Shown piece by piece: positions 54,066 through 58,610 of a DNA stretch of 64,000 nt. Source of the stretch: an uncultured Candidatus Saccharibacteria bacterium (GTDB lineage: Bacteria; Patescibacteriota; Minisyncoccia; Minisyncoccales; GWA2-38-27); assembly GCA_964447515.1 (NCBI GenBank), contig CAYUSS010000001.1, positions 4,092 through 68,091 of the forward strand, read 5' to 3'. The notes below the pieces were generated by a model, which had not been told where the DNA came from, searched no databases, and saw only the letters and a program-made list of their open reading frames with translations. A program made the position numbers and the translations under genes. Positions within the stretch are counted from its first letter, which is position 1, and every line of letters begins with the position of its first letter.

Positions 54066-54336
54066 TGCCCGACAGGATTCGAACTAACATCAATTTAGCG
54101 GAGCGAATTTTATTCAAATTCAAGGCGCGAGGAGTGAAGTGTGTTATTTACACACGAGCGACGAGCAACAAAGAAGCTGGATAAAATTCACCCGCCCGCA
54201 GGGAAGCGAAATAATAGGCCAATTTCTTCGTTACTCCTCCTCGAAGTGTTTTCTAACACTCCTTCGTCGTCGTGCCTTGAACTTGACCTATTCTTTCGCT
54301 TCTAAACTTGATGGTAGTTCGAATCCTGCCGGGCTT
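54066..54336. mobile_element. about 270-bp palindromic element with about 40-bp tRNA-like terminal inverted repeats (copy A); no ORF
   Basis: The ends gcccgacaggattcgaactaacatcaatttagcggagcga and tcgcttctaaacttgatggtagttcgaatcctgccgggc are reverse complements. Both contain the GGUUCGAAUCC T-arm-like motif. The two internal halves are also related, giving a long hairpin. It is about 95% identical to the reverse complement of 58342-58610. Confidence 0.7.
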
Positions 54337-55279
54337 ACAAAAAGTACTCGCACTCATTGCATCTTTTTTCACAAAGACGCTTTTTGGACTCTTCAGAAAA
54401 GTTAAGCGCTAAATGTCCTTTTGGTAATATCGGTAATTCCCCCAAATCAACTTCAACATATCTTATTCCTGATTCTGACCTTATCTGTTTTGTTATGAAA
54501 TCATCTATTCTTTCTAAACTAGGGGAAACAATATCAATAATTAAATTATGATGCCCAGAATAAACCTTAACTAGATTATAAACCAGGGGACAGTTCTCAA
54601 ACCTTCTTATCAATTTAGAAACAACATCAGGAGAAGTCTCAATTCCAATAGTAGCTGTCACCGAATAAAATTTTTTAATATTTAATAATCCTTGAATTTT
54701 TAATATATCCTTTTCAATTAATTTTTCAACTCTATTCTTAGCCCCGACCGGAGTTAATCCAGTCTCCTTTGCAATTTTAACAAAACTTTTTCTTCCATTT
54801 TGGGACAAGATCTTAATTATTTTAAGGTCAATTTTGTCCAAATTCTTTAAATTCCAAAAGCGAGGAGCGGGATAATCTTCAACGGAAAAATCAGCTACTT
54901 TTATTCTGTCGCATAAAACAGCAAACTTTATATCTTTGAGCTTTAACTTTTTTCTCTTTCTTCTCATCAAATCCATTATTGTCCGGTAGGCCTTGCCAGT
55001 AACAATATCATTATCAACCAATAAAACTTTTCTCCCCTTTATTTTATCTTCCTCTAATCCCTTTCCATAATCATCCATAGTAATAAAAGTTATGTTTTTA
55101 TTTTTTTGAGATAACCAATGGTAAAGCCCTTCAGCATAAAAAACACCATCATCTTCTAATCCGATTATACACCCTTTATCTTTACCAAAATATTTCTTTA
55201 CTTCTTTTCCAATTCCATTAATAAACTTTCTAACTGGTTTAAGATCCAAAAGAGTATTTTTCGGCATATTTTTTAACAT
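54335..55279 (-). CDS. phosphoribosyltransferase domain fused to AsnC/Lrp-type HTH regulator domain
   Basis: PRTase motif KVLLVDNDIVTGKAY, AsnC HTH LDKIDLKIIKILSQNGRKSFVKIAKETGLTPVGAKNRVEKLIEKDIL, and a C-terminal CxxC. The last codons overlap element A. Confidence 0.55.
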   Translation of the reverse strand: MLKNMPKNTLLDLKPVRKFINGIGKEVKKYFGKDKGCIIGLEDDGVFYAEGLYHWLSQKNKNITFITMDDYGKGLEEDKIKGRKVLLVDNDIVTGKAYRTIMDLMRRKRKKLKLKDIKFAVLCDRIKVADFSVEDYPAPRFWNLKNLDKIDLKIIKILSQNGRKSFVKIAKETGLTPVGAKNRVEKLIEKDILKIQGLLNIKKFYSVTATIGIETSPDVVSKLIRRFENCPLVYNLVKVYSGHHNLIIDIVSPSLERIDDFITKQIRSESGIRYVEVDLGELPILPKGHLALNFSEESKKRLCEKRCNECEYFL

Positions 55280-56126
55280 AATGTTTTATTAAATCATCAC
55301 GAAGTTCAGGAGTAGAAGTAGCAATTAATAAATCCATCTTATCATGTTGTCTTCCGGGAATAAATTGGTAATCATTATAGCTCCCGTCAGAACCAACGCT
55401 AACAATCTGACAGTTAGCTTTTTTAGCAATTGGAAAACCAGGATCAATCTCTGAACGCGGCTCATTAAACATCACATAGGCATCAACTAATCCTGAAGCC
55501 AGGAAGGCATAAATATAAGAGCCGCCTTGAGGATAAAAAAGGGCTTTAGGATGCATATTTCTGATTAAGTCTTCAAAAATATCAAGAAACTTTGGAGAAT
55601 ACTGAGAACTCATTATGTAACTAGATAAAACAATGGGTTCGGTCAATTTTTTCTTGAAAGAAGGTTTAATTTTCTTTTTCTCCCCGGTCTTCATTGAAAC
55701 TAAATAATTCCCATCTTCTTCGGTGATATAATATTTTTCATTAACAATATCAGCTATGCCGCAGTATAAAGGGCTTTTCTCTTTGTCAAAAAAACTCAGG
55801 ACAGTATACCAATTGTGTTCAAACCCTCTAAGATAAAGCATTGAACCGTCAAAAGGGTCAATAGAGCCGAAAATTTCCCCTCCGTTTTTAATATCTCTGC
55901 CTTCTGGTTCAGAAAAAATGGTTGCTTTTATTTGATGTTCTTTTAAAAGTTTTTCTAAAATATCTTCTCCTACTCTATCAATTCCAATTTCCAGGTCTTC
56001 CGGCCTATTTATTGTCTCGCCTAAAACCTGTCTTCCCCCTCCACCGGCGGCTATTCTCTTTACCTCTTTAACTGTCTCAATCAGGTATTCAACTAACAAG
56101 TTTTTTATTTGCTGTTTTTTTCCCAT
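55239..56126 (-). CDS. inositol monophosphatase / FBPase-family (FIG) protein
   Basis: Metal-binding motif SIDPFDGS. Confidence 0.5.
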   Translation of the reverse strand: MGKKQQIKNLLVEYLIETVKEVKRIAAGGGGRQVLGETINRPEDLEIGIDRVGEDILEKLLKEHQIKATIFSEPEGRDIKNGGEIFGSIDPFDGSMLYLRGFEHNWYTVLSFFDKEKSPLYCGIADIVNEKYYITEEDGNYLVSMKTGEKKKIKPSFKKKLTEPIVLSSYIMSSQYSPKFLDIFEDLIRNMHPKALFYPQGGSYIYAFLASGLVDAYVMFNEPRSEIDPGFPIAKKANCQIVSVGSDGSYNDYQFIPGRQHDKMDLLIATSTPELRDDLIKHYVKKYAEKYSFGS

Positions 56127-56166
56127 TACTTAAGTGTAGCATTTTCCTTTCTTTTTTAAAATAATC

Positions 56167-56240
56167 AACACCCGACGTTTCCCTTGGCGTCTCTGACGCC
56201 AATTCCTCAACGTCGGGTGTTTCAATAACGTCGGGTGTTG
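56167..56240. repeat. AACACCCGACG...CGTCGGGTGTT element (second copy) plus extra CGTCGGGTGTTG half-site, downstream of groEL
   Basis: Internal hairpin TTGGCGTC tct GACGCCAA, which is the compensatory variant of the 11191-11245 copy. Confidence 0.65.
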
Positions 56241-56273
56241 ATAAACTTAGTTGGTGTTAAGTCGGGTTTAGGT

Positions 56274-57911
56274 TTAGTAGCCCATTGGAGGCATTTGGGG
56301 CATTTGGCCTCCTTTTTCTTTCTCAGATTCCTTTTCAACAACAACAGCTTCGGTGGTTAAAAAGGTGCCAGCAGCAGAAACAGCATTTTGAAGAGCAGAC
56401 CTAACCACTTTGGTAGGGTCAACAATGCCAGATTCCATCAAGTCCTCATAATTCAGGGTTTCGGCATTAAAACCAAATCCCTCTTTCCCGTCCTTTACTT
56501 TTTGAGCCGCTACTGCTCCATCAATTCCAGCATTTTGGGCAATCTGTCTTAGAGGCTCTTCTAAGACCCTCTTTAAAATATTAATTCCTGTTTTTTCATC
56601 CCCGTCGGCATCGGCTGGCGAGGCGAGCAATTCGTCTAAAATTAAACTTGCTCTTAGTAAGGACACTCCTCCGCCAGGGACAATTCCTTCTTCTACTGCC
56701 GCTTTAGTTGCCGCAAGGGCATCTTCTGCCTTATGCTGTTTTGCTTTTAGCTCAACTTCGGTAGCCGCTCCAACTTTAATTACCGCTACTCCTCCGGCTA
56801 ATTTTGCCAATCTTTCTTCTAACTTTTCTTTATCAAATTCAGATTCAGTTGTCTTAAGCTCTTTTTTGATTTGATTAATCCGTGCCTCAATATCTTCTTT
56901 CTTGCCTTTGCCTTCAATAATTGTAGTATTCTCTTTAGTAGAAACAATCTTTCTGGCTGAACCCAACATTTTCATTTCAGTATTTTCTATTTTTAAACCA
57001 ACTTCTTCTGAAATCACCTGAGCTCCGGTAACACAGGCAATATCCTGAAGCATTTCTTTCTTCCTATCTCCAAAGCCAGGAGCTTTAACTGCCAAAGTGT
57101 TAAAGGTTCCTCTAAGTTTGTTAATCACCAGAGTAGCCAGGGCTTCTCCTTCTATATCATCGGCAATAATTACTAATTCCTTCTTGCCGGCCTGAGCCAT
57201 TTTCTCCAATAAGGGCAAAATTTCGTTTAGAGCAGATATTTTTTTATCGGTAATTAAAATATAAGGGTCCTCATAAACCGCTTCCATTCTTTCGGCATTA
57301 GTGAGCATATAAGGAGAGATATAGCCCTGGTCAAATTGGAGTCCTTTAACAATTTCTTTCTGAAGACCAAAAGTTTTCGATTCCTCAATTGTGATTACTC
57401 CCTCCTTACCAACTTCTTCCATAACCTCAGCAATTAAATTACCAATTTCTTTACTTTCGGCAGAAATAGTTGCCACTTGAGCGGTCTCTTCTTTATTGGT
57501 AATTCTCTTGGTCATTTTCTTTAACTGAGCTACTACTTTTTCCATCCCTTTATCAAGCCCTCTTTTTAGGGCTAAAGGATTAGCGCCGGCAGCTACATTT
57601 TTTAACCCTTCTAAAATTATAGATTGGGCTAAAATTACAGCCGTAGTAGTGCCATCTCCAGCCGCCTCATTGGTTTTTTCAGCCACTTCTTTAACAATCT
57701 CGGCTCCAAGATTCTCAATTTTATCTTCTAATTCAATTTCCTTGGCAATAGTAACCCCATCATTGGTAATAGTGGGAACTCCGAAACCTTTACCTAAAAC
57801 AACATTTCTCCCTCTGGGACCAATGGTAACTTTAACCGTATCAGCTAATTTATCTACCCCAATTTTTAGTTTTTTTCTTGCCTCTTCTTGATATTTGATT
57901 TGCTTAGCCAT
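56274..57911 (-). CDS. groL: chaperonin GroEL
   Basis: [15 protein letters not shown]... and the Met/Gly-rich C-terminus [10 protein letters not shown]. Confidence 0.95.
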
Positions 57912-58044
57912 ATTTCAGCGGACAACGAACAGCGAGCAATAATATTGACGTCTGTTGGTATCAAATACCAACAGACCATAAATAAGAAATTTTATTGTTC
58001 ATTGTTGTGTCCTTTGTTTATTGTCCATTTAGCCATTATTGAGT

Positions 58045-58335
58045 TTACTCAATAATGGCGAGTACGTCTTCTTGTTTTGCAATTAAATAGTTTTTATTCT
58101 CGACCTTTATTTCATTTGGACCATATTTAGTAAACAAAACCTTATCTCCGGGTTTCACCTCAAGAGGAATAATTTTCCCGGAACCCGTTTTGCGGCCCGG
58201 TCCTGTTGCAATTACTTTCCCCTGTCCGGGTTTTTCTTTTTCAGCGGTCTGGGGAAGTAAAATTCCTGTTTCTGTTTCTTCTTCTTCTTTCATCGGTTCA
58301 ATAAGTATATGATCTGAAAGTGGTTTTATTTTCAT
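58045..58335 (-). CDS. groS: co-chaperonin GroES
   Basis: MKIKPLSDHILIEPMKEEEETETGILLPQTAEKEKPGQGKVIATGPG... The track ORF extends 11 codons into element B, and the start is set at MKIKPL. Confidence 0.85.
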   Translation of the reverse strand: MKIKPLSDHILIEPMKEEEETETGILLPQTAEKEKPGQGKVIATGPGRKTGSGKIIPLEVKPGDKVLFTKYGPNEIKVENKNYLIAKQEDVLAIIE

Positions 58336-58341
58336 AGTTCT

Positions 58342-58610
58342 GCCTGACAGGATTCGAACTATCGTCAACTTTAGAAGCGAGAGAATAGGTCAAATTCGAG
58401 GCACGACGACGAAGGAGTGTTAGATAACACTTCGAGGAGAAGTAACGAAGAAATTGGCCTATTATTTCGCTTCCCTGCGGGCAGGCGAATTTTATCCAGC
58501 CTCTTTGTTGCTCGTCGCTCGTGTGTGAATAACACACTTCACTCCTCGCGCCTTGAATCTGAATAAAATTCGCTCCGCTAAATTGATGTTAGTTCGAATC
58601 CTGTCGGGCT
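58342..58610. mobile_element. about 270-bp palindromic element with tRNA-like terminal inverted repeats (copy B, inverted relative to copy A)
   Basis: The reverse complement aligns end-to-end with 54066-54336 with few mismatches. It abuts the groES start codon. Confidence 0.7.

Follow-up and report, generated by a model that had tools for sequence, protein, structure and literature searches.

A family of probably mobile, gene-less 270-bp elements with a conserved three-way-junction interior, spread across Patescibacteria and flanking a groES-groEL block

In a 64,000-nucleotide stretch of an uncultured Candidatus Saccharibacteria bacterium (contig CAYUSS010000001.1, positions 4,092 to 68,091; hereafter the window), a 4-kb block carrying groES and groEL lies between two inverted copies of a short repeat, which we call elements A and B. 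Very probably, each arose by a separate insertion and belongs to a family of non-autonomous mobile elements, gene-less and about 270 bp long, that extends across Patescibacteria and conserves a three-way-junction interior. The family behaves like a MITE (a transposable element of the miniature inverted-repeat type) or a REPIN (a hairpin-forming pair of repetitive extragenic palindromic, REP, sequences) and differs from known MITEs by its variable ends and its conserved three-way-junction interior. Element A (54067-54334) is a full-length member on the plus strand, which is the family sense strand and the orientation of our family alignment A3 (nhmmer E 1e-72), and element B (58342-58609) is a full-length member with its sense strand on minus (E 2e-69). 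Each measures 268 bp, well within the size of MITEs (below about 500 bp), and 253 of 268 positions are identical as reverse complements (94.4%), which bears out an earlier note on this DNA that had described two inverted copies of about 270 bp bracketing the chaperonin block. That note had also taken the elements to be without open reading frames (ORFs), and this holds: the ORFs overlapping them are spurious and non-conserved, and insertions and deletions within the family are not multiples of three. Its placement of the ends needed correction. Element A adjoins the stop codon of a gene for a phosphoribosyltransferase (PRTase)-AsnC fusion protein (54335-54337) and does not overlap it, and element B, located in the groES leader, is next to the start codon but ends 6 nt short of the ATG at 58335. 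The arms of the terminal inverted repeats (TIRs), put earlier at about 40 bp, are 26-30 nt long and 87-90% complementary, or about 33 bp long when a TTTAG/CTAAA extension is counted.

By chance, 0.04 occurrences of the 19-nt terminal motif would be expected in the window; it is found there four times, and nhmmer with the family profile found no further family copy in the 64 kb beyond A and B. The elements stand out by their GC content (46% versus 35.5% in the window), each is an imperfect palindrome with about 68% identity to its own reverse complement, and RNA folding of both on both strands gave z-scores of about -12 against shuffled controls. The pair is not an assembly artefact, because an independent JGI contig (L003) has both copies in the matching layout and five more contigs have element B, one of them with a 24-bp deletion.

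We screened species-representative genomes (one per species) with the terminal motif, and metagenomes with an internal motif, family searches being done by nhmmer profile. The terminal-motif scan yielded 60 loci exclusively in metagenome-assembled genomes (MAGs) of Patescibacteria, namely Harrisonbacteria, Nealsonbacteria, bins labelled as Saccharibacteria, and others. About 45 of these loci come from one MAG, H51-bin038_1, where the near-identical copies stand at contig ends, the signature of a recent multi-copy burst that broke the assembly. The metagenome scan added 110 loci, among them single matches on some long contigs, one of 867 kb. Altogether the family is seen in more than 150 Patescibacteria contigs; a genome holds from one to about 45 near-identical copies, and element length is confined to 260-290 nt. 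No member was found in IMG/VR, where four matches to a 15-base motif were rejected by nhmmer, and the phage and plasmid collections gave no family match. Neither element matched an Rfam 15 family at the gathering threshold or at E<=10, and a literature search that included literal sequence strings returned no description of such elements. The family is thus apparently undescribed and occurs throughout the Candidate Phyla Radiation (CPR).

Alignment A3 comprises 57 members with pairwise identity below 92%. Their common anatomy is a 26-bp outer stem, P1, with a TTKAG/CTMAA extension, followed by a left hairpin, a CCC-loop-GGG mini-hairpin and a right hairpin. In element A, the 5' strand of P1 (54067-54092) pairs with the 3' strand (54309-54334), which includes the T-loop-like decamer GTTCGAATCC; the left hairpin (54099-54194) is made up of a closing stem, two purine-rich strands (S1 and S2) and an apical hairpin that varies, and the right hairpin (54202-54301) is built in the same way, with S3 and S4 as its pyrimidine-rich strands. 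All these parts of A are on the plus strand. The corresponding parts of element B, on the minus strand, are the 5' strand of P1 at 58584-58609, pairing with its 3' strand at 58342-58367, the left hairpin at 58482-58577 and the right hairpin at 58375-58474. RNAalifold predicts a three-way junction from A3, with compensatory changes in 70 of 82 pairs. In the curated junction 93.2% of cells are paired, and sliding the partners by 1-3 columns lowers this to 37-43%; double-sided changes affect 77 of the 90 pairs (shuffle mean 58.4), the covariation score is 0.587 (0.196 shuffled, 0.06-0.12 slid), and none of 500 shuffles attained the observed values. P1 is paired in 93.7% of cells over the 57 members. 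Its sequence is wholly different among subfamilies, yet always complementary, and the type with the T-loop-like motif, GGATTCGAAC/GTTCGAATCC, is just one of several.

The best-conserved parts are the four internal strands S1-S4, although the invariance of S1 arises partly by construction, S1 being fixed in the search pattern, from which S2-S4 are free except for GCGAC. The ends vary and the interior is strongly conserved, a reversal of the pattern of ordinary MITEs. Within both hairpins, Watson-Crick pairs recur at about every third position and covary inside the apparent loops (76:125, 226:266, 218:273 and 229:261); between them stand tandem G.A oppositions in the left hairpin and pyrimidine-pyrimidine oppositions in the right one. 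The conserved blocks of the two hairpins are mutual reverse complements (the reverse strand scores nhmmer E 1e-17 to 1e-22), S1:S4 and S2:S3 being about 80-90% complementary, and therefore the window copies compute as one long rod. This is the imperfect palindrome that the earlier note had read as a hairpin of 135 bp; it is indeed the computed minimum-energy fold of A and B, but across the family the rod helices outside P1 are just 78-79% paired with few double changes, and the La:Rb segment of the rod is mostly broken. Where the conserved strands vary, local pairs covary and rod pairs break, so that the long rod is not the conserved structure of the family. The strand polarity of the fold is weakly indicated: the left stem has 53 G.U against 21 A.C oppositions, with no such excess in P1, and one "conserved G.U" pair, 184:305, is ambiguous between two helices. 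Some comparisons with known RNAs were rejected. An IS110-style bridge RNA with two internal loops does not suit the family, whose loop strands are its most conserved parts and track neither ends nor targets; the bases resembling a hammerhead (CUGAUGA) and a K-turn are fully paired in P1.

Four comparisons of filled and empty orthologous sites show that insertion involves the unit bounded by P1. In the related contig L113 a copy occupies 884-1157, exactly at the smpB stop codon before the transfer-messenger RNA (tmRNA) gene, and the window is empty at the same place (44484-44486, just before the tmRNA 5' end). A second case is the filled locus L075 with its empty counterpart L161. At the site of A, a relative with an 88% identical PRTase-AsnC protein shows the fusion gene, 136 nt and greA, with the matching greA promoter and no element. 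At the site of B, relatives at 73-75% identity have uvrA-groES without an element, and alignment with relatives places B as splitting the ancestral leader a few bases before the groES ATG. Further traces of mobility are internally deleted derivatives that retain both ends at several loci within one genome, a copy probably nested in another (L089/L162), a sub-variant with an extra small hairpin that has proliferated on its own, and two copies that truncate IS200-like genes. The earlier proposal of a MITE-like non-autonomous mobile element is thus upheld by a multi-copy family with deletion derivatives and clean filled and empty sites. At smpB, whose end overlaps the tmRNA gene (44479-44828, within the region 44034-44828), we observed that the insertion in the related contig recreates the stop codon (TAA to TAG). 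Moreover, tiny palindromic insertions occur within copies (L088/L092, L022/L170 and the H51 sub-variant, e.g. L012:4125-4170), such as TCCCCCCACTTAATCTGTACAGATTAAGTGGGGGGA, CCTGCCTGCCGGCAGGCAGG and the hairpin GGGTCTCTGG...CCAGAGACCC, which suggests further small hairpin repeat families in these genomes.

The order holin-(uvrA)-groES-groEL-IMPase-PRTase/AsnC-greA is kept in relatives (73-88% protein identity) from which one or both elements are missing. The 4-kb block is therefore ancestral, with A and B as independent insertions at its borders. The idea of the pair as a unit carrying the chaperonin block was rejected, as relatives have the block without the elements. One relative (L100) with an 81% identical groES has no upstream element; at 5748-5830 it shows about 30 nt (CAGATCTGGTTTGAATCTTGC) that resemble P1 on its 3' strand and may be left over from a copy since lost.

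Elsewhere the neighbours of copies are ordinary housekeeping genes, with copies lying tight against gene ends. Clustering of ORFs in the surroundings of 170 copies (1.3 Mb) revealed no recurrent protein partner, the biggest clusters being spurious ORFs within the element itself. About seven non-redundant copies lie within 10 nt of a tRNA gene, where a fraction of one (about 0.2) would be expected genome-wide, or about two if only intergenic sequence is considered; in L124 a copy fills the spacer between tRNA-Arg and tRNA-Ser. In L138 (3251-8545), inverted copies stand 45 nt upstream and 12 nt downstream of the 23S rRNA gene and might pair in the pre-rRNA as a processing stem some 260 bp long; this 23S rRNA gene contains two LAGLIDADG endonuclease ORFs. 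Facing pairs enclose short segments in related contigs (L138, L126, L087 and L112). In addition, a Harrisonbacteria contig (MHJJ01000001.1, L066:3857-7525) carries two direct short derivatives, between which lies a restriction-modification cassette of 3.3 kb (Mrr_N, NucS-like, N6/N4 methylase and helix-turn-helix proteins) with its own 114-bp inverted repeats, adjoining greA. It looks as though a short element had received the cassette and been duplicated by its insertion.

We then consider which enzyme might move such an element. A Pfam scan of 150 ORFs of the burst genome identified two Y1_Tnp proteins (IS200-like, of the REP-associated tyrosine transposase, RAYT, type), one intact with its own 29-39-nt palindromes and the other cut after ...NYIHA by the element. 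A third, intact gene with classical REP doublets on its flanks was found on a contig from the sample series of the window, and in Harrisonbacteria a remnant is interrupted by a short copy of the element. These RAYT-like genes of element-bearing genomes (L051:6356-6835, L058:6088-6340, L055:5258-5956 and L090:7461-8177) thus comprise two truncated by the element and two intact. Patescibacteria have a very large, conserved family of these proteins (1648 matches at 60-75% identity), whose genes are single-copy, set among housekeeping genes and accompanied by short palindromes. Searching by tblastn with IS200 and IS608 TnpA sequences gave no match, a false negative given the divergent Y1_Tnp proteins found by Pfam. 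Among the 60 genome loci no ends enclosed 1-2 kb, and no transposase cluster was found near copies. Comparison of the outer P1 with REP stems at RAYT genes gave two 7-nt matches (GGAGACC and GCCCGAC), but the same-genome pairs in H51 and L090 mismatch. In the window itself, four short perfect GC-rich palindromes (6795-6817, 10574-10602, 25192-25221 and 53314-53342) may be terminators or REP-like repeats; two of them, GGAGACCGGGTCTCC and CCCGACCT...AGGTCGGG, resemble REP stems by RAYT-like genes elsewhere.

According to the model that we favour, a host-encoded enzyme would move the element in trans, acting on the P1-bounded unit in single-stranded or extruded DNA, and the conserved fold would bring the two element ends together, a logic like that of REPINs. 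IS200-like/RAYT-type Y1 transposases are the leading putative enzymes, since the hairpin logic and the compensatory evolution match those of REPINs (PMC3116915); RAYT-type mobilisation remains a tentative candidate, held at clearly less than even confidence, and DDE-type cut-and-paste is a comparable alternative. Several observations weigh against the reading of the family as mobile elements of this kind. No autonomous partner sharing the ends of the element was found, 12 further Y1_Tnp loci all lack the element within 3 kb, and the intact Y1_Tnp genes examined have their own short palindromes as flanks, never the 270-nt element. Copies show no orientation bias towards co-directional neighbours (22 sense, 31 antisense), contrary to the prediction for lagging-strand-targeted IS200/IS605 transposition. 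Identical dinucleotides, for the most part TA or TT, flank 14 of 57 copies, and a duplication of 0 bp or of 2 bp is equally compatible with the empty sites. Finally, a conserved interior between variable ends could denote a functional RNA. Another possibility is that the family is an ordinary MITE moved by cut-and-paste, derived from a DDE transposon that duplicates 2 bp (TA/TT) of its target (IS630/Tc1-like, as has been proposed for Correia elements), the fold being incidental. Such a MITE is favoured by the terminal inverted repeats, by TA or TT on both sides of many copies (left flanks sharing only T(T/A)), by the identical flanking dinucleotides in three of four short copies of one MAG and by the random orientation. 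We nevertheless regard it as rather unlikely, as no transposase sharing the ends was found in the 1.3 Mb around copies, conservation is lowest at the outermost bases, strong covariation is seen in internal stems that have no relation to the ends, and the empty sites require no duplication.

The strength of the covariation, on a par with that of bona fide RNAs, raises the question of whether the family is primarily a structured non-coding RNA gene or module, with P1 as an RNase III processing stem, hairpins that bind protein or RNAs, and dispersal as a secondary trait; copies in leaders and beside tRNA or rRNA genes would be expressed by read-through and freed by processing. The raised GC content, the single match on long contigs including that of 867 kb, the enrichment beside tRNA genes, the L124 spacer copy, the inverted copies around the L138 23S rRNA gene and the G.U excess of the left stem agree with this. 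Against it stand the unbiased orientation, the lack of a conserved promoter or terminator with the unit, polarity evidence that is weak without the ambiguous 184:305 pair, the absence of an Rfam match, and near-identical bursts, truncated derivatives and insertions into genes, which are the behaviour of a selfish element; we therefore hold a primarily RNA role to be possible but doubtful. A similarly modest likelihood attaches to the joint idea that the three-way junction is a functional nucleic-acid module spread by mobility, either a CPR-wide transcript-processing "mobile structured RNA" or a folded single-stranded DNA (ssDNA) substrate of recombination. The RNA version would suit copies that border operons, fill tRNA spacers or lie on either flank of a 23S rRNA gene; in the ssDNA version, a structure-specific enzyme of a novel recombination system would recognise a REP-like stem held by a 215-nt folded "loop". 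A composite transposon or invertible segment formed by the inverted copies and the 4-kb block, with the chaperonin genes moving or flipping together, is very improbable. The 268-bp inverted repeat at 94% identity and the other facing pairs would suit it, but the gene order kept in 73-88% relatives lacking one or both elements contradicts a composite transposon, the block has one orientation in all independent assemblies and all relatives, and the count of seven inverted versus two direct pairs is not significant and is expected from the loss of direct pairs. Derivation from tRNA, as a short interspersed element (SINE) or as halves of a split tRNA gene, is scarcely credible. The likeness noticed earlier at the ends is real insofar as GGATTCGAAC/GTTCGAATCC in P1 is identical to the T-loop consensus over 10-11 nt, the outer 12 bp in some subfamilies are as long as a helix of acceptor plus T-stem, and copies are enriched by tRNA genes. 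However, ARAGORN found no tRNA at the ends, the Rfam tRNA model RF00005 was silent at E<=10 over 53900-58900, no pairing exists between the flanking 5-nt stems that a T-arm would have, the decamer takes part in the P1 helix and is not a loop, many subfamilies have unrelated P1 sequences, and the window's two tRNA-Leu genes do not match P1.

The closest known counterparts are the REPINs of RAYT/TnpA-REP systems, which are likewise non-coding, extragenic and persistent across lineages. They consist of two mutually inverted hairpin units able to form one long hairpin, an architecture that the left and right hairpins of the family resemble in part. Compensatory changes have been documented in REPIN hairpins, which are non-autonomous mobile DNA (PMC3116915), and keep those hairpins as they do in 77 of 90 pairs here. 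REPIN units are 20-40 nt long, whereas those of the present family measure about 100 nt, their long hairpin is not the conserved fold, a 26-bp outer stem and the three-way junction are added, and the interior rather than the hairpin foot is conserved; furthermore, a cognate RAYT gene is flanked by its own repeat, which is not the case for the element at the Y1_Tnp genes examined. The Correia repeat-enclosed elements (CREE/NEMIS) of Neisseria resemble the family in being small and gene-less, with inverted-repeat ends, a characteristic core and no known transposase (PMC2649163), and in inserting beside or before genes and becoming part of leaders. They differ by occurring in Neisseria only, by their length of 100-157 bp and conserved ends, and by an IHF site and outward promoters with no multi-helix fold reported; no sequence similarity connects the two. 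PATEs, MITEs derived from IS200/IS605, are also structured hairpins that could move in trans by a Y1 HUH transposase, maybe without target duplication, but have subterminal hairpins without terminal inverted repeats, a fixed tetra- or pentanucleotide 5' of the insertion and a strand bias, none of which is found in the family. With tRNA-derived SINEs the family shares the T-loop identity and the adjacency to tRNA genes, but it lacks a cloverleaf or tRNA-model score and has the motif paired in a long stem. Bacterial SINEs are not known.

The bracketed genes were identified correctly by the earlier note and all lie on the minus strand: groES (Cpn10, 58045-58335) as first gene of the operon, groEL (Cpn60, 56274-57911), an inositol-monophosphatase-family (IMPase) gene (55239-56126) and, last in the block, the PRTase-AsnC/Lrp fusion gene (54335-55279), after which greA comes beyond element A. 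The promoter of groES had been expected inside B, but a promoter-like TTGACA-16-TAAAAT lies upstream of the element (58770-58743, minus strand; its -35 hexamer aligns with the groES upstream region of a relative), and no site comparable to this near-consensus one was found inside B on the groES strand. For this reason B is most likely read in sense as part of a groES leader of about 400 nt from the candidate upstream promoter, with a predicted transcription start at about 58735. A second promoter-like TTGACA-16-TAAAAT, for greA, lies just past A (54022-54049, minus strand) and is kept in a relative without A; in relatives, the A site at the operon 3' end has an intrinsic terminator. Element A would be read as antisense at the 3' end of the groES operon, and the two transcripts might fold separately or pair as a 268-bp 5'-3' duplex. 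In either form, stable RNA structures could affect mRNA processing and stability, which makes A and B plausible RNase III or stability determinants by analogy with Correia elements, in which the mRNA hairpin of the ends is an RNase III substrate (PMC2649163). The groES ribosome-binding site attributed to the element is reduced to one trace, AGG at -10 to -8 within P1 of B, and groES in relatives has no Shine-Dalgarno sequence.

The operator CIRCE, bound by HrcA, had been reported absent upstream of groES, and indeed no intact TTAGCACTC-N9-GAGTGCTAA was found there with up to three mismatches allowed. A disrupted CIRCE is present, however. Alignment with a relative (L187) in which the operator is intact, TTAGCACTT-N9-AATTGCTAA, places one arm plus the 9-nt spacer at 58623-58640 and the second arm at about 58717-58725, split off by a 76-nt insertion (58641-58716). 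The insert is a GC-rich branched hairpin (hairpin arms 58632-58652 and 58705-58725) and had no second copy among the loci gathered. At about 58.4-58.8 kb, between groES and the holin-like gene, GC skew goes from about -0.2 to positive and gene orientation changes exactly there from minus to plus; the same gap contains uvrA in relatives, which is lacking in the window. Either a switch point related to replication or simply a region of divergent promoters might account for this.

Patescibacteria genomes are tiny, streamlined and thought to be repeat-poor. The family described here is a widespread repeat in such genomes that breaks assemblies. Its copies border genes, occupy tRNA spacers, surround an rRNA gene and, in the window, lie in the leader of the main chaperonin operon, whose ancestral heat-shock operator is disrupted. 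A model of the family would help annotation and account for contigs that break when CPR metagenomes are assembled. Moreover, it offers a tractable case of how small mobile DNAs are recognised by structure, and possibly of their co-option as RNA processing or stability signals.

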